Below are positions 2,545-63,377 of a DNA stretch of 64,000 nt, piece by piece; position 1 is the first letter of the stretch, and every line of letters begins with the position of its first letter. Both the position numbers and the translations under genes were made by a program. The DNA lies in NCBI GenBank assembly GCA_947503305.1, contig CANNDF010000009.1, positions 993 to 64,992 of the forward strand. Reading direction: 5' to 3'. This DNA is from an uncultured Dokdonia sp. Lineage in GTDB: Bacteria; Bacteroidota; Bacteroidia; Flavobacteriales; Flavobacteriaceae. A model generated the notes under the pieces. It was given only the letters and a program-made list of their open reading frames with translations, ran no database searches and had not been told where the DNA came from.

Positions 2545-2558
2545 GCTTTCGCGAAAGC
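2545..2558. repeat. Iterated palindrome GCTTTCGCGAAAGC, exact copy, intergenic
   Basis: Exact 14-mer, 14 nt after the stop codon at 2531. Confidence 0.95.
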
Positions 2559-2596
2559 GTACCCTTCATATCATTCTGAAATAAAAATAATACATC

Positions 2597-4330
2597 ATGA
2601 AAATACTAGTTCACATTGCACGCTTTCTTGTAGGGGCGCTTTTTATTTTTAGTGGGTTTATAAAATTAAATGATCCTCTTGGGTTTTCATATAAACTTCA
2701 GGAATACTTTAGTCCTGAAGTTCTGGACATTGATTTTTTATCACCGTATGCCCTTTTGATATCTATTCTTCTAGTTATAGTAGAGGTCCTCTTAGGCATA
2801 GCTCTTTTAATAGGCTATTATAAAAAACCAACGCTATGGTTATTACTAGCCATGATTTTATTCTTTACATTCTTAACCTTTTATTCAGCATATTTTAATA
2901 AAGTTACTGACTGTGGTTGTTTTGGGGATGCTATCCCTTTAGTACCGTGGGAATCTTTTGCCAAGGATGTTATTTTACTTGTTCTTATTCTCTTTTTGCT
3001 AGCCAAACAAAAACACATACTACCATTATTTGGTAAAATGCCTCGCTCTATTATCATGTTTTTGTCCTTTGTAGCTTGTATGCTTTTTGGGTATCATGTA
3101 CTTATGCATTTACCATGGTTAGATTTTAGAGCATACAAAGCAGGGTCTAATATCGCCGAAAATATGATTATCCCCGAAGGGGCTCCTGAAGCTGTCTTTG
3201 AATACCATTGGAAGTTTAATATTAATGGAGAAGAAAAAATTATTACTACAACTGGGGCTTACCCCCAAGTTGAAGGTGATTTTATAGATTATGAAACCCA
3301 ACAGATTTCTGAAGGATATATTCCTCCTGTACATGACTTTACGATAGAAAGAAACGAGCAAGATTATACAACTACTTTTTTAGAGAAAGAAAACCTTGTG
3401 GTTATAGTTGCTTACAATCTAGATAAAACAGAGCGTGAAGCTTATTACAATATTAGAAATACTACAGAAGAAGCAATACGCAATGGATATACAGTCATAG
3501 GCCTTACCTCTTCTAGTCCAGAAGTAAATGAAGCCTTTGTTAAAGACTACAAACTTCCCTTTACTTTTTATTTTACAGATGAGACTGTTTTAAAAACAAT
3601 TGTACGTGCAAATCCTGGAATTGTTGCTCTTGACAAAGGAACTATCCTTCAAAAACTTCATTGGAATGATGCCAGTGATCTTACTATAAATGAGTTGCCT
3701 ACAGCCCAACCTTTATTAGATTTTGATTTAAAATTTGAGCTAGACAGCATTGCTGTTTTAGATCAAAAATATCGCAAACTAATGCACGTAAGTGGTGAGG
3801 AACGTGAAGCATTGGGTAAAAAAATGGGATTAGGGCCAGAAGATTACAATGGTAATTTATGGGAACGACAGATTGCTATAGATACTAGTAATCTCAAAAG
3901 AATTGAACAAATACTTAATACTAAAGGGTATCCTGGAAAGTCTATGGTAGGTACTCCAACGAATACTGCTGCTTGGTATGTAATACAACATTCTAATAAA
4001 ATTCCAAAATACCTTGAACTAATGAAAGAAGCAGGAAAGGCTGGAGAACTCCCTTTTAGGCTTGTAGCTATGATGGAAGATCGCTACCTGATGAGTGAAG
4101 GTAAATCACAAATATATGGTACTCAAGGAATGGAGTATAATAATAGTGGTCCTTTTATATGGCCTATAGAAAATCCAGAAAATGTAAATCAATTACGACG
4201 AGATGCAGGATTTGAAAGTACTATAGAAGTATATGCAAAAGACCTCTTCGGAGAAGATTTTGAGTTTGAACATATCACTCTAGAAGAAGCTGAAAAACGA
4301 AGATTGAGATCTATTAATACAAACGAATGA
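2597..4330 (+). CDS. DoxX/BT_3928-like membrane protein with a periplasmic thioredoxin-like region and an extra C-terminal domain
   Basis: 577 aa. The N-terminus MKILVHIARFLVGALFIFSGFIKLNDPLGF plus several TM helices and a CGCFGD motif fit the DoxX-type family. Residues from about 390 onward (LDQKYRKLM..WERQIAIDTSNLKRIEQIL..AAWYVIQHS) form an additional soluble module. Confidence 0.7.
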   Translation: MKILVHIARFLVGALFIFSGFIKLNDPLGFSYKLQEYFSPEVLDIDFLSPYALLISILLVIVEVLLGIALLIGYYKKPTLWLLLAMILFFTFLTFYSAYFNKVTDCGCFGDAIPLVPWESFAKDVILLVLILFLLAKQKHILPLFGKMPRSIIMFLSFVACMLFGYHVLMHLPWLDFRAYKAGSNIAENMIIPEGAPEAVFEYHWKFNINGEEKIITTTGAYPQVEGDFIDYETQQISEGYIPPVHDFTIERNEQDYTTTFLEKENLVVIVAYNLDKTEREAYYNIRNTTEEAIRNGYTVIGLTSSSPEVNEAFVKDYKLPFTFYFTDETVLKTIVRANPGIVALDKGTILQKLHWNDASDLTINELPTAQPLLDFDLKFELDSIAVLDQKYRKLMHVSGEEREALGKKMGLGPEDYNGNLWERQIAIDTSNLKRIEQILNTKGYPGKSMVGTPTNTAAWYVIQHSNKIPKYLELMKEAGKAGELPFRLVAMMEDRYLMSEGKSQIYGTQGMEYNNSGPFIWPIENPENVNQLRRDAGFESTIEVYAKDLFGEDFEFEHITLEEAEKRRLRSINTNE

Positions 4331-5403
4331 TACGGTACTTTCTTCAAAAATTAGGTTATGCAACTCTCACACTTGTAGGGGTTGTTACCGTCATATTTTT
4401 GTTGTTTAATGTATTACCTGGTGACCCTGCACGAATGATGTTAGATCAAAATGAAGACCCAGAACAGCTTGCAAAAATTAGAGCAAAGTATGGATTTGAC
4501 CAACCTGTGTATAAACAATACCTCTACTACCTTAATGATCTCTCTATCGTTTCTTTTCACGCAAGTGAAAAAGAACATTATACTAGCCTATCTTCAAAAA
4601 AGTATACTGCTACCCCCCTACTTACTCTAGGAAATACTCAAATCGCACTAAAATATCCTTACCTGAGAGAAAGCTTTCAAAAGACAGGAAAAAAAGTAAG
4701 TGAGGTCATTCAAGAAACATTACCCAATACTATTGTACTCGCTGTAAGTGCTATTACCATTGCAATTATACTTGGCATATTGTTGGGAGTTATTTCTGCT
4801 CAAACGCGAGATACATGGCTAGATAGACTTATACAAGTGATTAGTACTTTAGGCATGAGTGTTCCAAGCTTTTTTAGTGCTATTTTATTTGCATGGTTGT
4901 TTGGTTTTGTACTGCATAAGTATACACATCTCAATATGACGGGAAGTTTATATGCCATGGATGATTTTGGAGAAAAAATCACTATCCAATGGAAAAATTT
5001 AATTTTACCTGCTTTTGTATTAGGTATTAGGCCACTTGCAGTTATTATCCAACTCATGCGTAATTCGCTACTCGAGGTCTATAACCAAGAGTACATCAGA
5101 ACGGCTAAAGCCAAAGGATTAAGTACTTATCAAATCATAAAAAAACACGCACTTAAAAACGCATTGAATCCTGTAGTAACAGCAGTATCTGGCTGGTTTG
5201 CATCTATGCTTGCAGGTGCTGTTTTTGTAGAGTATATTTTTGGATGGAATGGCCTAGGAAAAGAGATTGTGGATGCTCTTAATACCTTAGATTTACCTAT
5301 TATCATGGGGGCTGTACTTATTATCGCATCCTTATTTGTTCTTATAAATATCTTTGTAGATCTTATCTATGGCTGGCTAGATCCTAAAATAAGATTATCC
5401 TAA
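4327..5403 (+). CDS. ABC transporter permease (Opp/Dpp-type binding-protein-dependent family)
   Basis: 358 aa, multi-TM, with the EAA-like loop EYIRTAKAKGLSTYQIIKKHALKNAL. Its start overlaps the upstream stop (ATGA). Confidence 0.85.
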   Translation: MIRYFLQKLGYATLTLVGVVTVIFLLFNVLPGDPARMMLDQNEDPEQLAKIRAKYGFDQPVYKQYLYYLNDLSIVSFHASEKEHYTSLSSKKYTATPLLTLGNTQIALKYPYLRESFQKTGKKVSEVIQETLPNTIVLAVSAITIAIILGILLGVISAQTRDTWLDRLIQVISTLGMSVPSFFSAILFAWLFGFVLHKYTHLNMTGSLYAMDDFGEKITIQWKNLILPAFVLGIRPLAVIIQLMRNSLLEVYNQEYIRTAKAKGLSTYQIIKKHALKNALNPVVTAVSGWFASMLAGAVFVEYIFGWNGLGKEIVDALNTLDLPIIMGAVLIIASLFVLINIFVDLIYGWLDPKIRLS

Positions 5404-5565: not shown

Positions 5566-5588
5566 CTCAATAAACTAATACACCTTAG

Positions 5589-6944: not shown

Positions 6945-8557
6945 AAAATCTCCATTTAATTATACTATTTATACTGGTAAGCACACTATCCAGCTGGGCT
7001 CAAGAAGATCGTTTTTATATACGAACGATCAGTGAGGAGGTTGAAATCCCTGTTACTACAACAGACTCCATAGTTACATATACAGGGACAAATCAGAAAT
7101 TAAAAAGCATATTTGAAAAATATCATGTCAAAGTATTTCGGAAAGGTTTTAAATATGCAGATCGTGATAAGCTCAAGCGCACTTTTTTTGCAATAGCAGA
7201 CAGCCCCGATTTTCAAAAAGAGCTATTACAAGAAATGTCAAATATGTTTGAGTTTGGAGAAAGTTTGCAAGAGGAGCTCTTAAAAATTTATGAACCCAAT
7301 GATTATGGAACTACAAGTACAACTGGAAAAAACACAGGCGCCCAAGCGTATCTAGATTATTATGATTTTTTGGGGGTACCACAGGCATGGTATTATACTA
7401 CAGGTAGTCGCGATATTGTTATAGGAATTTCTGATGCTACTGTTGACCCAGAAGATCCTGAGTTTAAAGGAAAAACAACCGTTTTTAAAAATAGCACCTT
7501 CTCAGAAGGTCATGGGTTGAGTGTAGCCGCTACTGCAGCAGCACAAGGGGATAATGGATATGGTATTGCAGGGGTTTGCTATGATTGTAGCGTGTATACA
7601 ACGAGGTATGGTGATTTTAGATTTTTACGTCAGCTCTTAGAATTATCTAGAGCGGGTGCAAAAGTGATCAATTGTAGCTGGGGAGGCACAACTTATTATG
7701 AGACAGCTCAGGAAGCGATTAATGAAATGAGAGATAATGGTACCGTCATTGTTTCTGTACCTCATAATGAATCCTATGCTACTACCAAAGGAAAAAAGCC
7801 AAGGTACCCTGGAGCTTATGAACATGTGATTTCTGTTGGGAGTGTACAATATCGCTATAATGATCCATCAGAATCATTACATTTTAATGAAAAAAATGGC
7901 AACTACTATACTGTTGGGTTAAAGTACCATGTAGGCCGTACAGCTGGTTTCAAAGACAATGATCCAAAAAAAGAATATCGTATATACCCTGTCTCTACAA
8001 ATAACCTAGATCAATATGTGGATGTACTGGCACCAGGCAACTATATTTTCAGGTATGGCAGGTATGTAATGAAACAAGATAGTTTACTCTACAATAATGT
8101 AGAAGCCACTTCTCCAGCAGCACCCCTAGTTACTGGTACTATAGGATTAATGTTTTCTTTGAATCCATGTCTATCTGTAGATGAAGTAAATAGTATCATA
8201 AAGCTTACCGCAACAAATATAGATGGTATCAAAGCAAATGCCCCCTATAAAGATAATTATGGCGCAGGAAGTTTACATACTGGAAAAGCAGTAAAAATGA
8301 GTCATGATATGTTACAATCTAATATGTATACTATAATTGAAAATCAAAAATTCCATAGGTGGAATTTTACATTAAACGCCCCTTATAATATCAGGATTCG
8401 TAATCAAAAATTTACCGATAGTGTTAAGGTACATTTTACAGCAAAAAATAAAATTTTAATTGAAAACGAAACTGTACTTTTGCCCAGCGAAAAAGGAGAA
8501 CTATTATTAAAAATTGATCCAAACGCATCCTATCATTGCAAAGACACTCAAGAATGA
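6941..8557 (+). CDS. S8 (subtilisin-like) serine peptidase
   Basis: 538 aa with signal peptide KNLHLIILFILVSTLSSWAQ. The candidate triad is Asp in IGISDATVD, His in GHGLSVAATAAA and Ser in EATSPAAPLVTG. The start is TTG and overlaps the upstream stop (TTGA). Confidence 0.8.
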   Translation: MKNLHLIILFILVSTLSSWAQEDRFYIRTISEEVEIPVTTTDSIVTYTGTNQKLKSIFEKYHVKVFRKGFKYADRDKLKRTFFAIADSPDFQKELLQEMSNMFEFGESLQEELLKIYEPNDYGTTSTTGKNTGAQAYLDYYDFLGVPQAWYYTTGSRDIVIGISDATVDPEDPEFKGKTTVFKNSTFSEGHGLSVAATAAAQGDNGYGIAGVCYDCSVYTTRYGDFRFLRQLLELSRAGAKVINCSWGGTTYYETAQEAINEMRDNGTVIVSVPHNESYATTKGKKPRYPGAYEHVISVGSVQYRYNDPSESLHFNEKNGNYYTVGLKYHVGRTAGFKDNDPKKEYRIYPVSTNNLDQYVDVLAPGNYIFRYGRYVMKQDSLLYNNVEATSPAAPLVTGTIGLMFSLNPCLSVDEVNSIIKLTATNIDGIKANAPYKDNYGAGSLHTGKAVKMSHDMLQSNMYTIIENQKFHRWNFTLNAPYNIRIRNQKFTDSVKVHFTAKNKILIENETVLLPSEKGELLLKIDPNASYHCKDTQE

Positions 8558-9417
8558 CACCTGTATATATAAGCTTTACATTTACTGTAACACCATTACA
8601 ACCTGGAACCGAAATACTAATAGCAGAACTAGGCTATGCAGGCTTTGAGAGTTTTACTGAAACAGAAACAGGTGTTATAGCGTATATCCAAAAAGAAGAA
8701 GCAATTGTAAACTCCGCAGGAGTTGACTATAAAGCTACTTTAAGTACGATACAAATATTGAAATCTGATGAATTTCAAATCACATATACCACCGAAGAAA
8801 TAGCCCAAGTAAACTGGAATGAAGAATGGGAAAAAAACTTTGACCCTATAGATGTAGATGGTCGCTGTGCTGTACGTGCCCCTTTTCACCCTAAAACTGA
8901 TGTCGATTATGATATTATCATAGAACCCAAAATGTCTTTTGGAACTGGCCATCATGAGACTACACATATGATGATTAAGCATCTACTCAAACTTAATGTT
9001 TCTGATAAAAGAACATTAGATATGGGTTGTGGGACAGGAGTGCTTGCAATTCTTGCAGAAATGCGAGGAGCTCATCCTATAGATGCAATTGACATAGACA
9101 ACTGGTGTTATCTCAATTCCATTGAAAATGTAGAAAGGAATAACTGTTCTAATATTACTGTATATGAGGGTGATGCTTCACTACTTAAAGGAAAAGTCTA
9201 TGACCTCATTATTGCAAATATTAATAGAAACATTCTATTACAAGATATTGCTATATATGCACAATGTCTCTCTTCAAAAGGCGTTTTATTATTAAGCGGA
9301 TTTTATACAGAAGATATTGCATTAATCACAGAAACGTGTAATGAAAATCAGCTATATTTTGTGGGTAACTATGAACGTAATAATTGGGTTGCCTGTAAAT
9401 TTGAAAAAAGAATATAA
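8554..9417 (+). CDS. prmA: Ribosomal protein L11 methyltransferase
   Basis: Contains FGTGHHETT and the SAM-binding motif LDMGCGTGVLAI. I prefer the ATG at 8554 (ATGA overlap with the peptidase stop) over the track start at 8536. Confidence 0.85.
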   Translation: MTPVYISFTFTVTPLQPGTEILIAELGYAGFESFTETETGVIAYIQKEEAIVNSAGVDYKATLSTIQILKSDEFQITYTTEEIAQVNWNEEWEKNFDPIDVDGRCAVRAPFHPKTDVDYDIIIEPKMSFGTGHHETTHMMIKHLLKLNVSDKRTLDMGCGTGVLAILAEMRGAHPIDAIDIDNWCYLNSIENVERNNCSNITVYEGDASLLKGKVYDLIIANINRNILLQDIAIYAQCLSSKGVLLLSGFYTEDIALITETCNENQLYFVGNYERNNWVACKFEKRI

Positions 9418-9436: not shown

Positions 9437-9450
9437 GCTTTCGCGAAAGC
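9437..9450. repeat. Iterated palindrome GCTTTCGCGAAAGC, exact copy, intergenic
   Basis: Exact 14-mer, 17 nt after the prmA TAATAA stop. Confidence 0.95.
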
Positions 9451-9871: not shown

Positions 9872-9906
9872 CACAGCGTAAATAAAGCACCATATAAAAA
9901 GGTATT

Positions 9907-11097
9907 ATGAATCTACACGAGTATCAAGGAAAAGAGATGTTAGCTAGTTTTGGCGTACGTATACAAAGAGGTATTGTCGCTACAACACCTGCAGAAGCTG
10001 TTGCTGCTGCAAAAAAACTTACAGAAGAAACCGGAACAAGTTGGCACGTTATAAAAGCACAAGTGCATGCGGGTGGCCGTGGTAAAGGTGGAGGAGTAAA
10101 ACTTGCTAAAAATCTTGAACAAGTAGAAGAAATTGCAGGTCAGATTATTGGAATGAATCTTGTAACACCACAAACAAGTGCTGAAGGTAAAAAAGTACAT
10201 CAGGTGCTTATTGCAGAAGACGTATATTACCCAGGTGATAATGAGCCCGAAGAATATTATATGTCTGTTCTCTTAAATAGAGCTAATGGTCGCAATATGA
10301 TTATGTATTCTACAGAAGGTGGTATGGATATAGAAACCGTAGCAGAAGAAACACCACACCTTATCTTTACAGAAGAGATAGATCCAGCAACAGGATTATT
10401 ACCTTTCCAAGCTCGTAAAATTGCATTCAATTTAGGATTATCTGGTACTGCTTTTAAAGAAATGACAAAATTTGTTTCTTCACTATATACTGCTTATATA
10501 AAAACAGATAGTTCCCTTTTTGAAATTAATCCTGTTTTAAAAACCAGCGATGATAAAATTATGGCTGTTGACTCTAAAGTATCTTTAGATGAAAATGCAC
10601 TTTTCCGTCATAAAGATCTTGCTGAACTCCGTGATGAACGAGAAGAAAACCCAGTAGAAGTAGAAGCAAAAGCGGTAGGTCTTAATTATGTAGACTTAGA
10701 TGGTAATGTAGGATGTATGGTAAATGGCGCAGGTCTTGCTATGGCTACTATGGATCTCATCAAACAAGCCGGAGGAGAACCAGCAAATTTTCTTGATGTA
10801 GGAGGTACTGCCGATGCAGAACGTGTAGAGATCGCTTTTGATCTTATTCTTAAAGACCCTAATGTAAAAGCAATTCTTGTGAATATCTTTGGAGGAATCG
10901 TACGTTGTGATCGTGTTGCTCAAGGGATTGTAGATGCCTATAAAAACATGGGAAATATTGAAGTACCTATTATTGTAAGATTACAAGGAACCAATGCAGA
11001 TATTGCAAAAGAACTCATAGACAATAGTGGACTCGATGTTCAAAGTGCTATAGAATTCCAAGAAGCCGCAGACAAAGTACAAGCTGTACTTGCATAG
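9907..11097 (+). CDS. sucC: Succinyl-CoA synthetase, beta subunit
   Basis: 396 aa with MNLHEYQGKE, KAQVHAGGRGKGGGV and the NIFGGIVRCD signature. Confidence 0.95.
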   Translation: MNLHEYQGKEMLASFGVRIQRGIVATTPAEAVAAAKKLTEETGTSWHVIKAQVHAGGRGKGGGVKLAKNLEQVEEIAGQIIGMNLVTPQTSAEGKKVHQVLIAEDVYYPGDNEPEEYYMSVLLNRANGRNMIMYSTEGGMDIETVAEETPHLIFTEEIDPATGLLPFQARKIAFNLGLSGTAFKEMTKFVSSLYTAYIKTDSSLFEINPVLKTSDDKIMAVDSKVSLDENALFRHKDLAELRDEREENPVEVEAKAVGLNYVDLDGNVGCMVNGAGLAMATMDLIKQAGGEPANFLDVGGTADAERVEIAFDLILKDPNVKAILVNIFGGIVRCDRVAQGIVDAYKNMGNIEVPIIVRLQGTNADIAKELIDNSGLDVQSAIEFQEAADKVQAVLA

Positions 11098-14468: not shown

Positions 14469-15485
14469 TTAGGAGAGTATATCGCTCCAAAGGGTTTTGA
14501 CTTGAGTCCAATCAAATTTTTCTGCCTTTATTCTCGCATTTTTACTTATTGTAGACGCTAATACAGGGGTTTCTAGAAGTAATTGAATTTTTTCAGTAAA
14601 AGTTATAATATCTTTTGGAGGGCTTAATAGACCATCAATCTCATTTTCAATAAGAAATGGTATTCCCCCAACATCTGTAGATATAACGGGTAAGCCTATA
14701 GCCATGGCTTCAATGACACTAACGGGTGTATTATCAAAGTCTGTTGTACTTATAAATAGATCATGCGTAGTTCCCAATGCGATCCATTCTGCCTTTGATA
14801 ATTTTCCTGTAAATGTTACAGGGAGATTATTAGCTTTCGCGAAAGCGGTACACTCTTCATAACTCTCGTCCTTTCGAGGGCCTACCATTGTAAGTATTGC
14901 CTCAGGATATTTTTTGTGTAGTTCTTGTAACACTTTAAGGGCCATAATGGGATTATAAATGTGCGCAAAAGAGCGTACCCATAATAAAGTAGGAGTATAT
15001 TTTTCTCTTATTTTAAAAGGATAATTATCTATCTCTATACTATTAGGAATATGGATAACATTAGAAAAACCTTCTTCATTAAAAGCATTTAATAAATACC
15101 TTGATGGTGCAATATTTATTTTTGCATTATTAAAAAGTTTTTGAGCACTTTTTTGACTTCTTTTAATACGCATAGGTAAGTTACCGCCATGTAAAATAGG
15201 GATATAAGGAATTTTAAAAAGCCTACATAATTTTGCAACATATATCGCATACCAATAATTTGCTGTGCTATATGTATCTATCAGTACTGTATTTACCGTA
15301 TTCCTATTTGTAATTACCGACCATAACATATCTAATAATCGAAGCGCCTTATTACGTATATGTGAGGATACAATAACATGATAACCTTCTTCTTTGAGCG
15401 AATTACTCAAAGTATCAATAGTAGATACCGTATTACCTTTATGAGATAATGCGTTTCCTATGTATAGAAGACTTTTTCTTTTCAT
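14469..15485 (-). CDS. Glycosyltransferase, GT4-like (GT-B)
   Basis: N-terminus KSLLYIGNALSHKGN and C-terminal E-x7-E-like region VSVIEAMAIGLPVISTDVGGIPFLIENEIDG. Confidence 0.8.
   Translation of the reverse strand: MKRKSLLYIGNALSHKGNTVSTIDTLSNSLKEEGYHVIVSSHIRNKALRLLDMLWSVITNRNTVNTVLIDTYSTANYWYAIYVAKLCRLFKIPYIPILHGGNLPMRIKRSQKSAQKLFNNAKINIAPSRYLLNAFNEEGFSNVIHIPNSIEIDNYPFKIREKYTPTLLWVRSFAHIYNPIMALKVLQELHKKYPEAILTMVGPRKDESYEECTAFAKANNLPVTFTGKLSKAEWIALGTTHDLFISTTDFDNTPVSVIEAMAIGLPVISTDVGGIPFLIENEIDGLLSPPKDIITFTEKIQLLLETPVLASTISKNARIKAEKFDWTQVKTLWSDILS
14833..14846. repeat. Iterated palindrome, exact copy, inside the GT4 CDS
   Basis: Exact GCTTTCGCGAAAGC. It is read on the minus strand as A-F-A-K-A (CTAFAKANN). 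Confidence 0.95.
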
Positions 15486-48485: not shown

Positions 48486-50948
48486 TTACCTTTTAAGTCG
48501 TTTTTGGATCTTACGTCGTAAACGTTTGATAATCCCAGATCGTTTTATATCCTCATGATATCCATTACTATAAGCTCCATAACCATAGCCGTATCCATAA
48601 CCGTATCCATAGCCATAGCCATATCTGCCTTTGGTTCTAAAGTAATTAAGTACAAAACTTACATTATTGATCTCTCCCTTACGATACTTTTCGTTGATAA
48701 GCCCTAACATGGCTTTTTTGGTATACCCCTGGCGTATCATATAAATCGTGGCATCCGCATAAGGAATAATTTCTAATGCATCTGCCACTAGTCCTACAGG
48801 AGGAGTATCCAGAATTATGTAATCATATTTCTTCTTAAGTTCGTCCATAAATACTCCCATTTGATCACTGATCAATAACTCAGAAGGATTGGGAGGAATA
48901 GGACCTGCAAGAATAATATCCAGAAAAGGCAAACTACTCGTTTGTGTAATTTCATCTAATGATGATTGCCCTATCAAATAATTGACAACCCCGCTATCAT
49001 TATGCAGGTCAAAATCACCAAATATTTTAGGTTTCCGTAAATCCAACCCTACAAGCACTGTTTTCTTTTCGCTTAAAGCGAAAACAGAAGCAATATTCAT
49101 AGAAGTAAACGTTTTTCCTTCTCCACTTACAGAAGAGGTAACCAATACTGTTTTTGCGCCCTCTACTTTGTTAGATTTATAAATAAATTGAAGGCTGGAA
49201 CGTATGCCTCTAAAAGCCTCGGCAATTGAAGACCGGGGTTTATCTTTTACAATCAAATTACTCTTATATGCACTCTTACCTACAACTCCTAAAACAGGGA
49301 TCTTAGATAAAGATTTAACCTCTTCAGGATTTCCAATTTTGGTGTCAAAAAACACTAGTAAAAAGACAAGCACCAAAGGAATCAAACCACCTACCAGAGA
49401 TGCAATCACATAATTGAGACGCATATTAGGACCCACGGGGCCATTACCAACATTTTTTGCAGGATCAATAAAGAGAATATCAGAAACATTAGAAGCCTTA
49501 ATAATTTTAGCCTCACTCTTTTTTGCCTCATAAAGATTATACGCCGCTTGACTTAATTTAAACCGTCGCTCTATTTCAGAAAGCTTTTGTTCTTCGGCAG
49601 GATATCGTCTTAGCTCCCTTTCGGCCTGAGCAATATCATTATTAATTTGTCGTATTTCACTATTGATAATCTCCTTAGAAGAACGTATGTTTTCTAACAA
49701 TACCTCTTTCTCAGCATTGATAGTACGGTCCAATTCTTTAAAGATAGGATTGGACTCCTTTGCAGAATACCCATAAGTGCTCCTTCGTACAGAGAGATCA
49801 ACAATTCTACTTACACTCTGAGAAATACTAGGTTCCTGAATACCCGCAACAGAAGGCGCAGGAACATTGGTATAATCTTCACGGGTCAACAAATAATTTT
49901 CTAATTGATTATAATACGTAAGTTTTTGATTTGCCCCCTCTTTCTGTAAATCATACGATTGTAATCGATTACTAAGTAGTTTAGATCCCCCTTTTAAAGC
50001 AACATCAATATTGTTATTTTTAAAAGTATTAAGCTCATCCAATACACTCTGTAATTCGGTATTCCTTTTTGTAAGACTCGTATCAATAAAAGCAATCGTA
50101 TTTGTAGCAAATAAGTTTTTACGCTCCAGTTGATCTCTTTCCCGTACACGTACAGAAGCATTCAGATAATCAATAAGCCTGAGCTTATTGGTCCCAGACA
50201 TAGCCAATTCTAGAATAGAAGAACCTTGAGGCTTCTGAGCAATATTTACACGATTATATGACTTTACGGTACTATTAAAATTGTTTGTACTTATAAAATA
50301 CTCTTGTCCTAAAGCTCCTGATCTTCCTCCAGGTAATAGTACCCCTTTTAAAAATGGGAGATTGATAGAATCCCCTACCTTAAACGTTTGCTTAAATTCC
50401 TCAGTAGGTCCTGGCACTACCGAATATCGTAACGTATTATAGTTAAACAAAGAGACATTCCCTCCTGAAAAAGGAATTTTGAATTCAAAATTTTTATCCC
50501 CAAGATCTGTGATTGTGATACGCCTCTGATGTAGCTGAGGATAACGATCATCTAATTTTAATGCAAAAGGAGTATACCCATATACATCTTCTAGATGGTA
50601 TTTACCTTGCTTTAAATAGCTTATATAATACTGAAGCTCTTTAACAACTTTCTCTGTATGAGTTCTGGATTTAAACAAGACAATATTAGTCTGAACCTTA
50701 TCTGTAGTCCCTCCCCAATTAAAAATCAAACTTGTATTTCCAGTAAATAATGGGTTTTGATCATCCTTAATAGAGATCATATTACTCATTAAGTAGATAG
50801 GTTGTTTTTTTAGGTTTTTATAATAAGCAATAGAATATGCAATCCCTAAACTTATTATAAACAAAGGCCAGAAACTTAAGAGTTTTATAATAAACCCTTT
50901 GAAATCAAAAAAATTACCCGATTCTTTTATTTCAAACTCTTCTTCCAT
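48486..50948 (-). CDS. wzc: Polysaccharide co-polymerase / tyrosine autokinase (Wzc-like, PCP-2a with BY-kinase domain)
   Basis: 820 aa. It has an N-terminal TM helix, a long coiled periplasmic region and a second TM helix. The kinase domain has Walker A SSVSGEGKTF, Walker A' VLVGLDLRKP and Walker B YIILDTPPVG, followed by a C-terminal Tyr cluster. Confidence 0.9.
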   Translation of the reverse strand: MEEEFEIKESGNFFDFKGFIIKLLSFWPLFIISLGIAYSIAYYKNLKKQPIYLMSNMISIKDDQNPLFTGNTSLIFNWGGTTDKVQTNIVLFKSRTHTEKVVKELQYYISYLKQGKYHLEDVYGYTPFALKLDDRYPQLHQRRITITDLGDKNFEFKIPFSGGNVSLFNYNTLRYSVVPGPTEEFKQTFKVGDSINLPFLKGVLLPGGRSGALGQEYFISTNNFNSTVKSYNRVNIAQKPQGSSILELAMSGTNKLRLIDYLNASVRVRERDQLERKNLFATNTIAFIDTSLTKRNTELQSVLDELNTFKNNNIDVALKGGSKLLSNRLQSYDLQKEGANQKLTYYNQLENYLLTREDYTNVPAPSVAGIQEPSISQSVSRIVDLSVRRSTYGYSAKESNPIFKELDRTINAEKEVLLENIRSSKEIINSEIRQINNDIAQAERELRRYPAEEQKLSEIERRFKLSQAAYNLYEAKKSEAKIIKASNVSDILFIDPAKNVGNGPVGPNMRLNYVIASLVGGLIPLVLVFLLVFFDTKIGNPEEVKSLSKIPVLGVVGKSAYKSNLIVKDKPRSSIAEAFRGIRSSLQFIYKSNKVEGAKTVLVTSSVSGEGKTFTSMNIASVFALSEKKTVLVGLDLRKPKIFGDFDLHNDSGVVNYLIGQSSLDEITQTSSLPFLDIILAGPIPPNPSELLISDQMGVFMDELKKKYDYIILDTPPVGLVADALEIIPYADATIYMIRQGYTKKAMLGLINEKYRKGEINNVSFVLNYFRTKGRYGYGYGYGYGYGYGYGAYSNGYHEDIKRSGIIKRLRRKIQKRLKR
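48576..48623 (-). repeat. Imperfect hexanucleotide repeat encoding (Tyr-Gly)x8
   Basis: The coding strand reads TATGGC TATGGC TATGGA TACGGT TATGGA TACGGC TATGGT TATGGA, by my own reverse complement. Confidence 0.9.
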
Positions 50949-51899: not shown

Positions 51900-53813
51900 T
51901 TGAATTATCTTTCGGTTGAACAAATTGCTAAATCTTACGGAGAACTCGTTCTATTTGAGAACATTGCCTTTGGTATTAACCAATATCAAAAAATAGGTTT
52001 TGTTGCAAAAAACGGTACAGGAAAAACATCCTTACTACATATTATTGCAGGAATTGAGCCGCCAGATAGCGGCCAAGTTATTTCTCGCAAAGGAATCATA
52101 AAAGCATTTTTACCTCAAGAACCTGACCTTAATCCCGAACTCACTATAGAAGAAACCATCTTTGCAAGTGATAATACAACACTTAAAATTATAGGTACCT
52201 ATGAGAAAGCGCTTCTTCATATGGAAGATCAGGAAGCCTATCAAAAAGCATTTGATGCCATGGAAGCGGCACAAGCTTGGGATTTTGAAACACAATACAA
52301 ACAGATACTTTTTAAACTCAAACTAGATGATCTTGATCGTAAAGTAGGATTGCTTAGTGGTGGACAAAAAAAACGCCTTGCACTAGCCGTATTACTACTT
52401 ACAAAACCAGATCTTGTTATTCTAGACGAACCTACAAACCACTTAGATCTAGAAATGATCGAGTGGTTGGAAGAATACTTCAAAAAAGAAAGCCTCACCA
52501 TATTTATGGTCACCCACGATCGTTATTTCTTAGAAAATGTATGTAATGAGATTGTAGAGTTAGAAGACGGGCAACTCTATAATTACAAAGGTAATTATGC
52601 GTACTATTTAGAAAACAAAGAAGCACGTATTGCAAATCAAGCTACCGAAACCGCAAAGGCAAAACAACTTTATAAAAAAGAATTGGAATGGATGCGTCGT
52701 CAGCCCAAAGCAAGAACTACCAAGTCCAAATCCCGTATCGATGATTTTTCAGAAATAAAAGAAAGAGCACATAAACGACGTAATGATCACCAGATCCAAT
52801 TAGAAATTAATATGGAACGTCTGGGAGGAAAAATTTTAGAGTTCCATAACGTAGGGAAGTCTTTTGGAGATTTGCAATTACTACATAAGTTTGAATATGT
52901 ATTCAAAACAGGAGAACGCATAGGTATCATAGGAAAAAACGGAACTGGAAAAACAACCTTTCTTAATATTATGACTGGAGCTTTACCTCCCGATTCTGGA
53001 AAAGTTATCGTAGGAGACACCGTAAAGTTTGGGTACTATACACAAAAAGGAATTACTATTAAAGAAGGCCAGAAAGTAATAGATGTCATCAAAGAATTTG
53101 GAGATTATATCCCACTCAAAAAAGGGCGTGTTATATCTGCCGGGCAATTATTGGAACGTTTCTTATTTGATCGAAAAAAGCAATATGACTATGTAGAAAA
53201 ATTAAGCGGAGGAGAACGTAAACGCTTATATTTATGTACCGTATTTATTCAAAACCCTAATTTCTTAATCTTAGATGAACCTACAAACGATCTAGATGTA
53301 GTAACTCTTAATGTGTTAGAAAATTTCTTATTAGATTTTCCAGGATGCTTAGTCGTGGTTTCTCACGACCGATATTTTATGGATAAGATTGTAGACCACT
53401 TATTTGTCTTTAAAGGAAATGCTATTGTAGAAGATTTTCCAGGAAATTATAGTGATTTTAGAGCCTACGAAGGAGACTTGAGTAACGCTTTCGCGAAAGT
53501 GGATAAAGACCTACACTCTTCTAAAAAAGATAACACTCAAAACATTGCTGCTCCAGACATAAAGAAAAGCTGGAAAGAACAACAACATACAGGCAGGCTA
53601 AGTTATAATGAACAAAAAGAGCATAGCAAGTTAGAACGTGAAATTGCTCAGTTAGAACGTGACAAAGCCCAAAAAGAAGCCCTGTTTCTTAATCCCGATA
53701 TAACCCAAGAGCAAATTACCGATGCCTCACAAGCACTACAAAAGATTATTAAGGATATCGAAACAAAAGAAGAACGATGGTTTGAACTATCGGCAAAACT
53801 AGAAGGAGAATAG
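51900..53813 (+). CDS. ABC-F family ATPase (two NBDs, no TM domain)
   Basis: 637 aa with two Walker A motifs (GFVAKNGTGKTS, GIIGKNGTGKTT), two LSGG signatures and a charged coiled C-terminal tail. TTG start. Confidence 0.9.
   Translation: MNYLSVEQIAKSYGELVLFENIAFGINQYQKIGFVAKNGTGKTSLLHIIAGIEPPDSGQVISRKGIIKAFLPQEPDLNPELTIEETIFASDNTTLKIIGTYEKALLHMEDQEAYQKAFDAMEAAQAWDFETQYKQILFKLKLDDLDRKVGLLSGGQKKRLALAVLLLTKPDLVILDEPTNHLDLEMIEWLEEYFKKESLTIFMVTHDRYFLENVCNEIVELEDGQLYNYKGNYAYYLENKEARIANQATETAKAKQLYKKELEWMRRQPKARTTKSKSRIDDFSEIKERAHKRRNDHQIQLEINMERLGGKILEFHNVGKSFGDLQLLHKFEYVFKTGERIGIIGKNGTGKTTFLNIMTGALPPDSGKVIVGDTVKFGYYTQKGITIKEGQKVIDVIKEFGDYIPLKKGRVISAGQLLERFLFDRKKQYDYVEKLSGGERKRLYLCTVFIQNPNFLILDEPTNDLDVVTLNVLENFLLDFPGCLVVVSHDRYFMDKIVDHLFVFKGNAIVEDFPGNYSDFRAYEGDLSNAFAKVDKDLHSSKKDNTQNIAAPDIKKSWKEQQHTGRLSYNEQKEHSKLEREIAQLERDKAQKEALFLNPDITQEQITDASQALQKIIKDIETKEERWFELSAKLEGE
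53487..53500. repeat. Iterated palindrome, 13/14 copy, inside the ABC-F CDS
   Basis: GCTTTCGCGAAAGT, read as A-F-A-K-V (SNAFAKVDK). Confidence 0.85.
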
Positions 53814-57538: not shown

Positions 57539-57572
57539 ACGTTTATAACAATTGACACCAATTACCATAATT

Positions 57573-60500: not shown

Positions 60501-60932
60501 AGTGTACAACTTGCCGTTCATGAACAAAAAGATCCATTATTGATCTATAAGTTTGAAGCTTTTGAATTATTCAAAACTATGATCGACAAAGTAAATAAAG
60601 AGGTAATCTCTTTCTTATTTAAAGGTGAAATCCCACAAGGAAACCAGCAAGTAGGAGATGCTAGTCAAGTACGTCGCTCTAAAGAAAAGCTAGAGACTTC
60701 AAAAGAAGAAATCCCTAATATGGATGAGCGTTCTGCACAAAGTCGAGCTGCAGGGAACACACAACCCCAACAGCAACAAGTTACAGAAACCATCGTGCGT
60801 GACCGTCCAAAAATAGGGCGTAATGATCGTGTTACTATTAAAAATGTAATGTCTGGAGAAAATAAAGTAGTAAAATACAAACAAGCAGAACCCCTCATTG
60901 CAAATGGCCAATGGGTACTGGTAGAAGAATAG
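57573..60932 (+). CDS. secA: Preprotein translocase ATPase SecA
   Basis: Contains [14 protein letters not shown] (Walker A), [19 protein letters not shown] and [11 protein letters not shown] prefer the ATG at 57573 ([11 protein letters not shown]) over the TTG at 57552. Confidence 0.95.
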
Positions 60933-60961
60933 TCTTTATAAATACATAAAAGACATTTAAA

Positions 60962-60995
60962 AAACGGTGAACTTATAAGTTCACCGTTTCTATTT
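60962..60995 (+). terminator. Rho-independent terminator after secA
   Basis: Perfect palindrome AAACGGTGAACTTATAAGTTCACCGTTT, with an A-run before it and T-rich sequence after it. Confidence 0.7.
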
Positions 60996-61075
60996 TTATC
61001 TTATAGTAATAAAGAAATATATTATTTAGCATACTATTTTTAATCTCTACGCTATAATTTGTATTTTAACAGACC

Positions 61076-62539
61076 ATGAATAATGACTACGCAACACGCA
61101 TCCAGAACTACAGTAACGGCAGTTATCAAGACCCGGCTTCTAATCAATGGATTGATAACTACGAGCCTTCATCAGGTAAAATCTATGGAGATATACCTAA
61201 CAGTAATGCAAATGATATAGAGGAAGCGGTAGCTTTTGCAAAAGCGGCATTCTCATCATGGTCACAAACTACTATTGAACAACGTAGTCGTATCTTATTA
61301 AAAATAGCAGATGGTATCGAAGCTAGACTACAGCAACTAGCCGAAGCCGAAAGTCGAGATAATGGAAAACCCATAGGCCTTGCCAAAAGTGTAGACATTC
61401 CAAGAGCTGCGTCCAATTTTAGATTTTTTGGAAATGCAATCACACAATTTGCATCAGAAAGCCACGAAAGCATAGGTCTTAATGCCATTAACTTTACATT
61501 ACGTAAACCCATAGGAGTCGTAGGATGTATAAGCCCTTGGAACCTTCCTTTATACCTATTTACATGGAAGATAGCACCCGCTATTGCAGCAGGAAATTGC
61601 GTCATTGCAAAGCCATCAGAAGTGACCCCTATGACCGCCTATCTTCTTGGGGAAATATGTACAGAAGCAGGATTACCCCCAGGTGTTTTAAATATCATAC
61701 ATGGCCTAGGGACAACAACTGGACAAGCAATCTTAGAACATCCAGAAATTAAAGCCATAAGCTTTACTGGAGGTACAAAAACAGGGGAGCATCTCGCACG
61801 TACCTGTGCACCTATGTTTAAAAAACTCTCTCTGGAACTCGGTGGTAAAAACCCAAATCTCATCTTTGCCGATTGCGATTATGAACATATGCTAGAGACC
61901 ACATTACGCTCTTCTTTTGCCAATCAAGGGCAAATATGCCTCTGCGGTAGTCGGATTTTTGTAGAACGATCTATTTACAAAAAATTCAAATCTGATTTTG
62001 TAAGCCGTGTCAAACAACTCGTCGTGGATCATCCTTCGTCAACAAAAGCAAACCTAGGTGCATTAGTATCAAAGCAACATCTAGAAAAAGTACAATCCTA
62101 TATAGCATTGACAAAAACCAAAGGCCAAGGCACTATCCTCTGTGGCGGGAATCGTATTATAATAAAAGGATATGAAGAAGGCTATTATCTAGAACCCACT
62201 GTTATAGAAGTCCCTAGTAACACCTGTACTCTTAATCAAGAAGAAATTTTTGGCCCTGTGGTTACCCTTATGCCATTTGATACAGAAGAAGAAGTCCTAT
62301 CCTATGCAAATGATGTAACCTATGGACTGTCTTCTACACTATGGACAAAAGATATAGACAGAACGATGCGAATAAGCAATCAACTTCAAGCAGGTATTGT
62401 CTGGGTAAATACATGGATGATGCGGGATTTACGAACCCCGTTTGGAGGCGTAAAAGCTAGTGGCGTTGGTCGTGAAGGTGGTTTTGAAGCATTACGTTTT
62501 TTTACAGAATCAAAAAACGTATGTATAAAATATAGCTAA
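61076..62539 (+). CDS. NAD(P)-dependent aldehyde dehydrogenase
   Basis: 487 aa with ELGGKNP and FANQGQICLCGSRIF (catalytic Cys) motifs. The substrate cannot be determined from the sequence. Confidence 0.9.
   Translation: MNNDYATRIQNYSNGSYQDPASNQWIDNYEPSSGKIYGDIPNSNANDIEEAVAFAKAAFSSWSQTTIEQRSRILLKIADGIEARLQQLAEAESRDNGKPIGLAKSVDIPRAASNFRFFGNAITQFASESHESIGLNAINFTLRKPIGVVGCISPWNLPLYLFTWKIAPAIAAGNCVIAKPSEVTPMTAYLLGEICTEAGLPPGVLNIIHGLGTTTGQAILEHPEIKAISFTGGTKTGEHLARTCAPMFKKLSLELGGKNPNLIFADCDYEHMLETTLRSSFANQGQICLCGSRIFVERSIYKKFKSDFVSRVKQLVVDHPSSTKANLGALVSKQHLEKVQSYIALTKTKGQGTILCGGNRIIIKGYEEGYYLEPTVIEVPSNTCTLNQEEIFGPVVTLMPFDTEEEVLSYANDVTYGLSSTLWTKDIDRTMRISNQLQAGIVWVNTWMMRDLRTPFGGVKASGVGREGGFEALRFFTESKNVCIKYS
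61232..61245. repeat. Palindrome GCTTTTGCAAAAGC (symmetric two-transition variant of the iterated palindrome)
   Basis: A perfect palindrome in its own right, read as A-F-A-K-A (VAFAKAAF) inside the ALDH CDS. Confidence 0.6.
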
Positions 62540-62597
62540 AACAAGGCATTTCAATATATTAAAAATTACGATTAATAAAAACCAGTATCTCTTATCT

Positions 62598-63377
62598 ATG
62601 AACCTACATCTTACACATAAAAATGCTCTGGTATGCGGTAGTACCGCAGGAATAGGAAAAGCGACAGCAATTGCCCTTGCACAAGAAGGTGCAAATGTAA
62701 CACTAGTCGCTCGTAATGAAGACAAGTTAAAAAACGTGTTATCAGAGCTATCCAATAACGGCTCGCAAACACATAGCTATATCAGTGCTGATTTTACAAA
62801 CCCTACCCAAGTAGCAAATGCAGTACTGGCAACAGGAAATGTATATCATATATTAATCAATAATACCGGAGGTCCTCCTGGAGGGGCTATAGTAGATGCC
62901 GATATTTCCGCTTTCGCGAAAGCGTTTACCCAACACCTGCAAACCAACCATTTATTAGTACAATCAGTAATTTCAGGAATGAAAGAAGCTGATTATGGGC
63001 GCATTATCAATGTGATTTCTACATCAGTAAAACAACCACTAGATGGATTAGGGGTAAGTAATACCATACGTGGAGCTGTTGCCAATTGGAGTAAAACACT
63101 AGCCAATGAACTAGGTCCTTATGGCATCACTGTAAATAATGTATTACCAGGAGCCACAGCCACAGGAAGGCTATCAGAAATTATAGAAAATAAAGCAAAA
63201 AAGACAGGGAAATCTATAGAAGAAATAAGTGCATCAATGCAAAATGCTTCACCTGCAAAACGCTTTGCATTACCCGAAGAAATCGCAAACGCTATTGTGT
63301 TTTTGGCAAGTGAAAAAGCGAGCTATATAAATGGAATTAATGTTCCAGTAGACGGAGGGCGAACAAAGTCTCTTTAA
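62598..63377 (+). CDS. Short-chain dehydrogenase/reductase (SDR)
   Basis: 259 aa with the cofactor motif VCGSTAGIGKA, the NNTGGPP region and a C-terminal INVPVDGG block. Confidence 0.9.
   Translation: MNLHLTHKNALVCGSTAGIGKATAIALAQEGANVTLVARNEDKLKNVLSELSNNGSQTHSYISADFTNPTQVANAVLATGNVYHILINNTGGPPGGAIVDADISAFAKAFTQHLQTNHLLVQSVISGMKEADYGRIINVISTSVKQPLDGLGVSNTIRGAVANWSKTLANELGPYGITVNNVLPGATATGRLSEIIENKAKKTGKSIEEISASMQNASPAKRFALPEEIANAIVFLASEKASYINGINVPVDGGRTKSL
62909..62924. repeat. Iterated palindrome, exact core extended to a 16-mer, inside the SDR CDS
   Basis: CGCTTTCGCGAAAGCG, read as A-F-A-K-A (ISAFAKAFTQ). Confidence 0.95.

Follow-up and report, generated by a model that had tools for sequence, protein, structure and literature searches.

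A clade-specific, highly iterated palindrome is present in the 64,000-nt window, the whole stretch of Dokdonia DNA analysed here. The 14-nt motif GCTTTCGCGAAAGC was found in seven exact, three one-mismatch and one two-mismatch copies (Table 1), with fewer than 0.001 copies expected, and was over-represented more than 10^4-fold. All 11 positions given in an earlier note on this DNA, including that of a symmetric two-transition variant, proved correct, and the observation of an iterated palindrome is confirmed. Dinucleotide-preserving shuffles of the window yielded no exact copy and 0.05 copies at up to two mismatches, and under Markov models of order 1–5 the expectation did not exceed 0.03 copies, or 6e-5 with the copies masked. 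The k-mer background comparison proposed in that note, run on the window, gave a count well above the Markov expectation, and chance is excluded. A single gene family, which the note had also discounted, is excluded because the copies occupy unrelated genes and spacers. The nine genic copies lie in genes of both strands (two GT1, two GT2, NeuB, pyruvyl transferase, ABC-F, aldehyde dehydrogenase and SDR), and the two intergenic copies were indeed found just past stop codons. The motif density was one per ~6 kb (~0.17 per kb, ~170 per Mb); the polysaccharide cluster, a type of region that tends to vary, equalled housekeeping DNA in this respect. The extension to palindromes of 16–18 nt held at 17969, 39123 and 62910. 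The full palindromic core comprises 16 nt, CGCTTTCGCGAAAGCG, and its 20-mer form is TACGCTTTCGCGAAAGCGTA. Nine of the ten TCGCGA sites and every GCGAAAGC site of the window lay within motif copies, and no other 10–14-mer of the window was iterated in this way. The earlier note had missed four features described below: the 16-nt extent of the core, the mirror-symmetric bias of the flanks, the over-dispersion of the copies and their restriction to one clade.

Table 1. Copies of the palindromic motif in the window
Position	Copy	Location (gene, strand)	Peptide	Remarks
2545–2558	exact	intergenic, 14 nt past the stop of the DUF1599 gene (1995–2531), 39 nt before the next ORF		biased flanks: 1 C in the left 20 nt, 1 G in the right 20 nt; L121 also has a copy in the same spacer
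9437–9450	exact	intergenic, 20 nt past the stop of prmA (8536–9417)		position common to the D. donghaensis group; two-mismatch copy there in Hel_I_53
14833–14846	exact	GT1 glycosyltransferase gene 14469–15491, minus	A-F-A-K-A	L121 ortholog reads GCTTTTGAATAAGC, without indel
17969–17982	exact	second GT1 gene 17857–18972, minus	A-F-A-K-A	16-nt palindrome
23200–23213	exact	GT2 gene 22052–23593, minus	L-S-R-K	sole window copy without the usual flank bias
32468–32481	one-mismatch, ACTTTCGCGAAAGC (G1 to A)	NeuB-family gene 32272–33267, minus	A-F-A-K-V	
39123–39136	exact	GT2 gene 38363–39289, minus	A-F-A-K-A	18-nt palindrome CCGCTTTCGCGAAAGCGG
47454–47467	one-mismatch, GCTTTTGCGAAAGC (CpG to TpG)	polysaccharide pyruvyl transferase gene 46720–47565, minus	L-S-Q-K	
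53487–53500	one-mismatch, GCTTTCGCGAAAGT (C14 to T)	ABC-F ATPase gene 51900–53813, plus	A-F-A-K-V	
61232–61245	two-mismatch, GCTTTTGCAAAAGC (C6 to T, G9 to A)	aldehyde dehydrogenase gene 61076–62539, plus	A-F-A-K-A	palindromic despite two mismatches; flank bias present
62910–62923	exact	SDR gene 62598–63377, plus	A-F-A-K-A	16-nt palindrome

Clade distribution and origin of the copies

Only Dokdonia, Nonlabens and some further Flavobacteriaceae have the trait. Seven other Dokdonia genomes carried 2–7 copies per 20 kb, and multi-copy 8-kb blocks were found in Dokdonia, Nonlabens and further Flavobacteriaceae MAGs, including blocks at four dispersed locations on the complete CP138998 chromosome. 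Other Flavobacteriaceae, sampled at 79 TIM-anchored loci totalling 842 kb, had no copy. The motif occurred in temperate-like phage contigs and was absent from two lytic Nonlabens phages. In the latter, CGCG was depleted (9 versus 44 expected), which hints at CGCG restriction-modification in the Nonlabens host lineage and is the sole indirect pointer to the methylation or restriction link that the earlier note had offered as speculation; GGCC and CCGG were avoided even more strongly, yet they are not iterated.

The copies were made in place by base substitution, not by insertion. Orthologs of the genic copies showed neither indels nor length changes, which settles in favour of substitution the ortholog comparison suggested in the earlier note, and the polymorphisms between close relatives were single point changes (159 shared versus 7 polymorphic pairings, at 2 distinct sites). 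Site positions were conserved among close species, albeit weakly above chance (4/4 sites versus 0.39 per site); spacer sites showed deep positional conservation, and sites turned over between distant species. A mobile or REP/MITE-like repeat that inserts itself is barely credible and already largely refuted. It would fit the enrichment in spacers and a loosely recurring GAGTAC...GTACTC flank, but 70% of the copies are genic, the genic copies have the same length as their orthologs, the polymorphisms are point changes, and the flanks hold ~0.1–0.4 bit per position with no common sequence.

Specificity, reading frames and spacing

The motif acts at the level of DNA, not of peptide, RNA or mobile element. 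Genic copies used all three reading frames (67:27:25) and rewrote the local peptides into AFAKA, RFRES or LSRK. The motif encoded 72 of 75 AFAKA peptides, and other Flavobacteriaceae had none in 275,000 aa. An RNA element, namely a transcription terminator, an attenuator or an mRNA-stabilising hairpin, is very improbable. Two window copies and many others do lie shortly past stop codons, and one L124 copy sits at the tip of a perfect palindrome of 44 nt (−20.9 kcal/mol). Against this, the genic majority occupies all frames, there is no T-tract, the window copies were not flagged by a terminator scan, convergent gene pairs were not preferred (3 versus 6.7 expected), no Rfam match was obtained, and the stem is not extended in most copies.

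The copies are kept exact and evenly spread. Exact, one-, two- and three-mismatch copies numbered 214:21:24:43, an exact to one-mismatch ratio of ~10:1, and C stood at position −1 in 83% of half-sites. The motif centre contains CGCG and TCGCGA, and a CpG lies at each end of the 16-mer. Copies avoided each other below ~1.5 kb (4/49 gaps versus 39% expected, P = 2e-6), and the gap CV of the 11 window copies was 0.36 (P = 0.001). Spacers were enriched 3-fold, with 30% of the sites in 9.5% of the DNA.

Such a distribution could also mark ~500 high-affinity sites for a lineage-specific protein of nucleoid organisation, segregation or occlusion, of the type seen in the parS/ParB, NBS/Noc, SBS/SlmA and matS/MatP systems, with the even spacing reflecting the domain served by each site; we regard this as rather doubtful. 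An exact 14–16-bp palindrome is what a helix-turn-helix dimer would be expected to bind, the sites lie in genes and spacers regardless of gene structure, they are over-dispersed and conserved in position among species, and a role in chromosome structure has been proposed for HIP1 (PMC5861425). However, the known systems have 10–70 sites that are often regional, as opposed to ~1 per 6 kb scattered across chromosomes. A strand-polar, C-free flank of 20–30 nt is not known from such proteins, and neither the turnover between distant species nor the protein cost of the motif would be explained.

Flank composition

The flanks of each copy have a derived composition that is polar with respect to strand, and the core sits in a two-fold-symmetric unit of ~55–75 bp. 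On each strand, the 5′ flank of ~20–30 nt was poor in C and rich in G and T, with the mirror image on the other side; C at positions −4 to −19 amounted to 1–8% versus a background of 18.6%. The bias held in spacers and in genic sites of all three frames. It was absent at random positions, non-motif TCGCGA and CGCG, half-sites and all control words. Since the outgroup orthologs of two genic sites (39 and 79 sequences) had ordinary flanks, the bias is derived.

The flanks and the exactness of the core also bear on a methylation-linked repair drive of the kind modelled by Elhai for HIP, which we consider unlikely. A methyltransferase would mark the central CGCG or TCGCGA, mismatch or very-short-patch-type repair keyed to the mark would correct near-cognate sites towards the motif, and the motif would be a by-product of biased repair, with the flank bias as the mutational scar of ~20–30-nt patches starting at the site. 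The CGCG/TCGCGA centre and the terminal CpGs agree with this, as do the length and 5′-to-3′ polarity of the flank bias, which fit excision patches from an incision in the site. All five substitutions in the window variants, and 9/16 one-mismatch changes overall, were C-to-T or G-to-A; one-mismatch copies were rarer than two-mismatch ones (21 versus 24), a pattern suggestive of single-error correction. The avoidance of CGCG by the lytic phages is likewise in line with it, and the abundance of HIP1 is correlated with a CGATCG methyltransferase (PMC4390886). On the other hand, non-motif CGCG and TCGCGA lacked the flank bias, GGCC and CCGG are not iterated despite their stronger avoidance by the same phages, and a neutral repair bias does not predict even spacing or deep conservation of spacer sites. 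The fact that we know of no methyltransferase or repair nuclease that reads 14–16 bp also argues against repair drive. A search of 1.2 Mb of motif-bearing DNA turned up neither a methyltransferase nor a Vsr-like gene, a weak test at ~1/3 genome-equivalent. For HIP1, Xu et al. favoured selection over replenishment by repair (PMC5861425).

The motif on each strand ends with GCGAAAGC. This sequence is identical to a DNA mini-hairpin of exceptional stability, which is refractory to SSB and to exonuclease attack and is found in the primase origin of phage G4 (PMC13037366). A single-strand signal for priming or restart, or an exonuclease stop on an exposed strand, would draw on this identity and its documented properties; we judge it improbable. 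The G at +1 lengthens the mini-hairpin stem, and the G+T flank on one side and the A+C flank on the other would remain unstructured beside it. Yet GCGAAAGC alone, the half-site, never occurred outside the full palindrome, the allowed mini-hairpin variants GCGNNAGC were not seen among the copies, and symmetric double variants that preserve pairing (2/24) were not significantly enriched. Standard folding gave −2 to −4 kcal/mol, a weak point against the signal as the parameters do not model this hairpin.

A possible tag for self DNA

We tentatively favour, as possible though somewhat short of probable, a tag that marks self DNA and is recognised by a symmetric factor during DNA uptake or recombination. 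The exact 16–20-bp palindrome would be the binding site of a putative dimeric (two-fold-symmetric), Dokdonia/Nonlabens-specific DNA-processing factor, and would mark DNA as self in uptake and/or homologous recombination, as do USS/DUS, Chi and, according to recent work, HIP1. Tagged DNA would preferentially be taken up, protected or recombined, and we propose that tagged alleles would consequently spread by drive plus selection. Processing may begin at the site, with the strand lying 5′ to the site, on either side, used or exposed as single-stranded DNA; this polarity would account for the G+T-rich, C-poor composition of that strand over ~20–30 nt, either because such flanks work better or because the strand is repeatedly deaminated.

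This reading draws on the over-representation, clade restriction, DNA-level action, substitution origin, sharp specificity, even spacing, spacer enrichment and polar flanks, as well as on the literature on competence and HIP1. Natural competence with a preference for own DNA has been described in the flavobacterium Riemerella columbina (PMC7965970), and transformation is more efficient with HIP1, which acts in a Chi-like manner (bioRxiv 10.1101/2024.09.10.611283). Several observations count against a self-DNA tag. The USS, DUS and Chi sequences known so far lack symmetry and span 5–12 nt, versus a 16-nt palindrome here, and the motif density is several-fold below that of USS/DUS, which is ~0.8–1 per kb. 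A graded uptake drive would be expected to yield a shallower ratio than 10:1, copies are as dense in the polysaccharide cluster as in housekeeping DNA, and conservation among close species is weakly above chance. To our knowledge, neither USS nor Chi nor HIP1 has a comparable flank bias, and a small, G+C-confounded test of substitution direction showed no net C-to-T flux.

Comparison with known systems

On sequence grounds, the palindrome appears to behave like HIP1 and the DNA-uptake sequences of other bacteria. Full-text literature searches (14-mer, 10-mer core, Dokdonia/Nonlabens palindromes) gave no prior description, in agreement with the earlier note, and its likening of the motif to HIP1 was borne out by the clade-wide occurrence (seven other Dokdonia, Nonlabens), the placement in unrelated genes and spacers, and the origin by substitution. 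HIP1 (GCGATCGC) and the alternate HIPs are likewise G+C-rich perfect palindromes, hyper-abundant against any background model, scattered clade-wide over unrelated genes and spacers and conserved in position between related genomes; deviations fall mostly on the outer positions, the centre looks like the target of a restriction-modification system, and the function is debated (repair drive, chromosome structure, transformation and recombination). However, HIP1 is an 8-nt cyanobacterial sequence with 300–2700 copies per Mb, whereas the Dokdonia motif belongs to Bacteroidota, spans 14–16 nt at ~170 per Mb and has far fewer one-off variants. It shows short-range repulsion in place of a 10–90-kb periodicity and a 20–30-nt strand-polar flank bias not reported for HIP1, and the 1.2 Mb of motif-bearing DNA yielded no cognate methyltransferase.

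USS (Pasteurellaceae) and DUS (Neisseriaceae) share with the motif a clade-specific 'dialect', hundreds of copies arisen by substitution inside genes, a reading-frame bias, characteristic peptides imposed on proteins, ~3-fold spacer enrichment, unusually even spacing (reported for USS) and extended weak flank preferences. They are asymmetric, 9–12 nt long and flanked by A/T tracts, in contrast to the palindromic Dokdonia motif with its G/C-skewed mirror pattern; competence and uptake bias are demonstrated for USS/DUS, whereas an uptake role of the motif is a proposal. Chi (RecBCD/AddAB) also occurs once per few kb as a species-specific sequence inside genes, with a G/T-rich strand that ends 3′ at the break, and the flank bias is polarised like the strand retained as the RecA-loading tail. 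Unlike the motif, Chi is 5–8 nt long, asymmetric, co-oriented with replication and read as single-stranded DNA by one subunit; we know of no palindromic 16-nt Chi. The parS, NBS, SBS and matS sites are exact 13–16-bp palindromes, often in genes and read by dimers, but they number in the tens and are regional and without a flank signature, whereas the Dokdonia motif numbers in the hundreds, is scattered and carries such a signature.

Copies of the palindrome in the window

The earlier note had placed eleven copies of a G+C-rich palindrome in the window, and all 11 coordinates proved right, comprising seven exact copies, three with one mismatch and one symmetric two-transition variant. Its view that chance could not explain them was borne out: Markov models of orders 1-5 predicted at most 0.03 exact copies in 64 kb against the seven present, and this expectation fell to at most 6e-5 once the motif copies were masked. 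A set of 100 dinucleotide-preserving shuffles gave no exact copy and 0.05 copies with up to two mismatches. The motif accounts for nine of the window's ten TCGCGA sites and for every occurrence of GCGAAAGC, and no other 10-14-mer of the window is iterated like it. The copies are not the property of a single gene family, as had also been proposed, since the nine genic ones are spread over both strands and over genes unrelated to each other (two GT1, two GT2, NeuB, a pyruvyl transferase, ABC-F, an aldehyde dehydrogenase and an SDR). These copies read as A-F-A-K-A/V in seven genes and as L-S-R/Q-K in two. The two spacer copies start 14 nt past the DUF1599 stop codon and 20 nt past that of prmA. 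The density of the motif was the same in the variable polysaccharide cluster (13-51 kb) as in housekeeping DNA.

Positions of the motif copies and of associated features
Feature	Sequence	Position	Strand	Remarks
Exact copies	Window	2545, 9437, 14833, 17969, 39123, 62910		
Exact copy	Window	23200-23213		Left flank is the recurrent GAGTAC; reading frame L-S-R-K
One-mismatch copies	Window	32468, 47454, 53487		
Two-mismatch copy	Window	61232		
DUF1599 gene ('nucleotide modification associated domain 1')	Window	1995-2531		Divergent from folP; motif copy directly downstream; gene order kept in all Dokdonia loci compared
Polysaccharide cluster, capsule or O-antigen-like	Window	13033-51736	Minus	More than 30 co-oriented genes, uninterrupted: several GT1/GT2, NeuB-family sugar synthase, pyruvyl transferase, Wzy-like ORF, GNVR/AAA_31 chain-length/tyrosine-kinase protein
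18-nt perfect A+T-rich palindrome AATTTTGAATTCAAAATT	Window	50475-50492		Within the GNVR/AAA_31 gene
12-mer half of AATTTTGAATTCAAAATT, further occurrences	Window	44989, 60120		
44-nt perfect palindrome TGTTATGATGAGTAC-motif-GTACTCATCATAACA	L124 (Dokdonia sp. Asnod2-E02)	9874-9917		ABC permease-tpiA spacer; -20.9 kcal/mol; right arm with a 6-nt deletion in three close relatives
25-nt G/T-only tract TGTGGTGGTTGGTGGTGTGGTGGTT forming one flank of a phage motif site	L153 (IMG/VR contig)	10834-10858		Chi-like in appearance
Same tract	L157 (IMG/VR contig)	5090-5114		Chi-like in appearance

Distribution among organisms and along genomes

The triose-phosphate isomerase (TIM, tpiA) of the window had no identical entry on record; by homology it falls nearest to Dokdonia, with 82-84% identity to the closest named proteins of that genus. 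The 14-mer was searched for with one genome per species and, among the matches listed, 8-kb blocks with multiple copies occurred in Dokdonia, Nonlabens (including strain BBFL7) and Flavobacteriaceae MAGs, while unrelated taxa gave, among the same matches, only single hits compatible with chance. On the complete chromosome CP138998 such blocks were found at no fewer than four places (0.88, 1.38, 2.15 and 2.82 Mb), and the copies therefore do not appear to be regional. Seven syntenic tpiA regions, from other species of Dokdonia, contained 2-7 exact copies per 20 kb. As an unbiased control, 80 metagenome loci anchored on TIM were scanned. The motif was present in a single one, the closest (77% identity), with four copies in 13 kb; the remaining 79 loci, which amount to 842 kb from other Flavobacteriaceae, contained no copies, and no alternative iterated palindrome was seen in them.

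The sites, at a density of about one per 6 kb, repel one another. Within 8-kb blocks, 4 of the 49 gaps were shorter than 1.5 kb, compared with 39% expected (P = 2e-6), and the gap CV of the 11 window copies was 0.36 (P = 0.001; not significant for the seven exact copies alone). DNA outside long ORFs was enriched, with 30% of sites in 9.5% of the sequence, and the genic sites were distributed unequally over the three reading frames (67:27:25). There was no excess in convergent-gene spacers (3 sites versus 6.7 expected), and no Rfam family matched the motif sites. The exact palindrome of 16-20 bp points to a two-fold-symmetric reader. That the copies serve as binding sites of a nucleoid protein is distinctly unlikely in our estimation; in parS/NBS systems a few to tens of regional sites go with a ParB-like protein, and both the density of the motif and its positions on CP138998 argue against such an arrangement.

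Two candidates were rejected. An intrinsic terminator did not fit, as the copies were not flagged by a terminator scan, have no T-tract and are followed by an A/C-rich 3' flank. A mobile repeat of the REP/MITE kind did not fit either, given that 70% of copies are genic, orthologues align without indels and the polymorphisms are point changes.

Origin and persistence of the copies

The earlier note had named point substitution and insertion as possible routes to the palindrome, and orthologue alignments decided in favour of the former: genic copies entail no change in length. In the TIM of D. sinensis the motif coincides with ERFRESG, where relatives have ESLSDSN, and locus L121 has GCTTTTGAATAAGC at the position aligned with window copy 14833. 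Among close relatives 159 site pairings were shared and seven were polymorphic, the latter representing two distinct sites, one with a single CpG transition and one with two changes. Four syntenic sites were intact in four genomes of ~94% identity (4/4, versus 0.39 per 14-mer window) and their flanks had diverged; conservation among these four genomes was above chance, at weak significance. The spacer sites between prmA and clpS, downstream of sucC and between the permease gene and tpiA were common to deep splits within Dokdonia, and most genic sites differed between distant species.

Copies with 0, 1, 2 and 3 mismatches stood at 214:21:24:43, compared with about 0/0.06/1.3/23 expected by chance, and exact copies outnumbered one-mismatch copies by about 10:1. 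In HIP, variant copies deviate chiefly at the outermost bases. Here about 15 of the 24 two-mismatch copies were altered at one terminal dinucleotide (GC) alone, and the one-mismatch changes fell at positions 1-2 (7/16) or 5-7 (9/16). On each strand the motif ends in the GCGAAAGC mini-hairpin (PMC13037366), and a single-strand signal based on it is a reading that we regard as highly improbable; symmetric double variants that preserve pairing, a test of hairpin selection, made up 2 of 24 against 2.6% expected, which was not significant.

The encoded peptide was rejected as the driver of the repeat. The motif encoded 72 of 75 AFAKA peptides, and 275,000 aa from other Flavobacteriaceae contained none, indicating that the DNA dictates the peptides.

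Core and flanking sequence

A profile was built from about 170 non-redundant sites. At the half-site, position -1 was C (+1 G) in 83%, -3 was T in 69% and -2 was A in 47%, and the core is therefore CGCTTTCGCGAAAGCG, often extended to TAC...GTA. On each strand the 5' flank was depleted of C (1-8% at -4 to -19, versus a background of 18.6%) and raised in G and T, and the 3' flank was its mirror image, poor in G and rich in A/C. The C-free tract running outward from -4 had a median length of 12 nt, compared with 3 nt for random positions. A G-C skew of +0.49 at -11 to -20 fell back to zero by about -35. Genic sites in all three frames had this bias on either side, as did spacer sites. Within the window it accompanied 10 of the 11 copies, variants included, the sole exception being 23200-23213, with 4 C to its left and 4 G to its right. 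No flank bias was observed at random positions, sporadic copies in unrelated phyla, half-sites, TCGCGA or CGCG outside the motif, or other palindromes. The signal is compositional. A fixed secondary motif in the flanks was rejected, as TGTTG, TGTGG and similar words had no set position and were enriched no more than composition predicts.

Outgroup orthologues that never carried the motif had ordinary flanks at two D. sinensis sites (79 orthologues for TIM and 39 for a MauE/DoxX protein), and the bias was therefore derived along with the motif, as judged from these two sites only. Flank substitutions at eight genic sites relative to motif-less orthologues comprised 33 versus 10 A-to-G and 11 versus 11 C-to-T changes, a small count in which the higher G+C of D. 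sinensis and possible fossil sites are confounding factors. The flank bias may be either a mutational scar or a functional requirement.

A weak ripple of 3 nt and 6 nt was also visible in the flanks of the ~170 pooled sites, with T peaks at -4, -7, -10 and -13 and partial tolerance of C at -8, -14 and -20. It occurred in spacer and genic sites and, the numbers being small, could reflect a 3-nt binding register or noise.

Phages, restriction and methylation

IMG/VR contigs contained the 16-mer in 42 stretches. Portal, major-head and tape-measure genes are present on some of them, together with host-like motif density and a weaker flank bias, and their host-like tetranucleotide profile suggests temperate phages or prophages. 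The phage site flanked by TGTGGTGGTTGGTGGTGTGGTGGTT, an extreme instance of the flank bias on the related contigs L153 and L157, showed a single CpG transition polymorphism among 99%-identical phages. The whole genomes of the cultured lytic Nonlabens phages P12024S and P12024L (35.7 kb each) contained neither the motif nor TCGCGA. Observed versus expected sites in these phages were 0 versus about 35 for GGCC, 2 versus about 34 for CCGG and 9 versus about 44 for CGCG, an avoidance that implies restriction-modification systems of those specificities in the Nonlabens host lineage; CGCG is also the centre of the motif. A restriction origin of the motif was unsupported, as the observed/expected ratio of host TCGCGA and CGCG outside the motif was about 0.7-0.8, like that of other Flavobacteriaceae.

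A repair drive linked to methylation, as in Elhai's model (PMC4390886), ranks with the nucleoid-protein and single-strand readings among the main rival explanations and is in our opinion rather unlikely. Genomes rich in a HIP have a cognate, often orphan, DNA methyltransferase for one of its internal sub-sites. A screen of 1.2 Mb for methyltransferases and Vsr (regex and Pfam) returned two methylase-like genes of phages (an N6/N4 methylase and a DUF4942 protein), the housekeeping PrmC and false positives. The avoidance of CGCG by the lytic Nonlabens phages is the one indirect hint, and a marine methylome paper gives TCGCGA methylation for archaeal MGIIA only.

Interpretation

The motif is a DNA-level feature that is made by substitution, kept exact, evenly spread and bundled with a derived, strand-polar flank. 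The polarity of the flank matches a strand that would stay as a 3' tail or unpaired, were processing to run 5'-to-3' on the opposite strand from the site; Chi recognition and short-patch excision produce the same polarity. This polarity, together with the traits shared with USS/DUS and HIP1, leads us to favour a self-DNA tag, and the motif may quite possibly, if still doubtfully, serve uptake and/or recombination in that capacity. A more unusual proposal, which we consider rather improbable, places each copy in the middle of a unit of ~55-75 bp with two-fold symmetry. Such a unit would combine Chi and an uptake signal in palindromic form and would initiate recombination or repair. A lineage-specific machine would load at the unit and run outward on one strand on each side, or expose that strand, and the local mark of this activity, rich in G+T and free of C, would be strong enough to rewrite about 18 codons of the host gene. 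If true, the 55-75-bp unit would be a genome-wide processing site of a new class, and no earlier process of this kind would have had a strand polarity legible directly from sequence.

Few sequence features show how a lineage treats its own DNA; iterated 'self' words such as HIP1, USS, DUS and Chi belong to those few, and to our knowledge HIP1 is still unexplained after 30 years. The motif provides an independent example in another phylum, in culturable marine models (Dokdonia sp. MED134, Nonlabens dokdonensis) and with a clean contrast between genera with and without it. Culturable hosts, the genus contrast and the flank signature make the question testable, and a prediction of the processed strand follows from the polarity of the flanks. 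Hundreds of proteins bear the imprint of the motif, in the form of the short peptides AFAKA, RFRES and LSRK and of biased residues next to them. The motif is a possible taxonomic marker for binning, and may be required for the efficient genetic manipulation of the bacteria that bear it.

Comparison with known systems

The earlier note knew of no described equivalent, and full-text searches for the 14-mer, its 10-mer core, palindromes of Dokdonia or Nonlabens and HIP in Flavobacteria likewise gave no description of the motif. Its likeness to HIP1 was upheld, as the motif is short, palindromic and rich in G+C, and exceeds Markov expectation by orders of magnitude. HIP in the sense of Robinson and Elhai denotes clade-wide dispersal in unrelated coding and non-coding DNA, which the motif displays. 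HIP1 proper, however, is GCGATCGC in cyanobacteria, whereas the Dokdonia motif differs in sequence and phylum, is much longer and sharper, and has a strand-polar flank signature without a HIP1 report. Its length combined with exactness, short-range repulsion and mirror-image C-free flanks are, as far as we found, unreported for HIP1, USS and Chi. Chi is short, asymmetric and replication-oriented, whereas the motif, being perfectly palindromic over 14-16 nt, has no orientation. Methylated HIP1 raises transformation in a Chi-like manner and is needed for efficient genetic manipulation in Synechococcus. USS and DUS belong to naturally competent organisms in which a receptor favours DNA that bears them. 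Natural competence with a preference for self-DNA has been described in Riemerella columbina (PMC7965970). With USS/DUS and HIP1 the motif shares a clade 'dialect', peptides imposed through a bias in reading frame, enrichment in spacers and even spacing, and it belongs with these iterated 'self' words.
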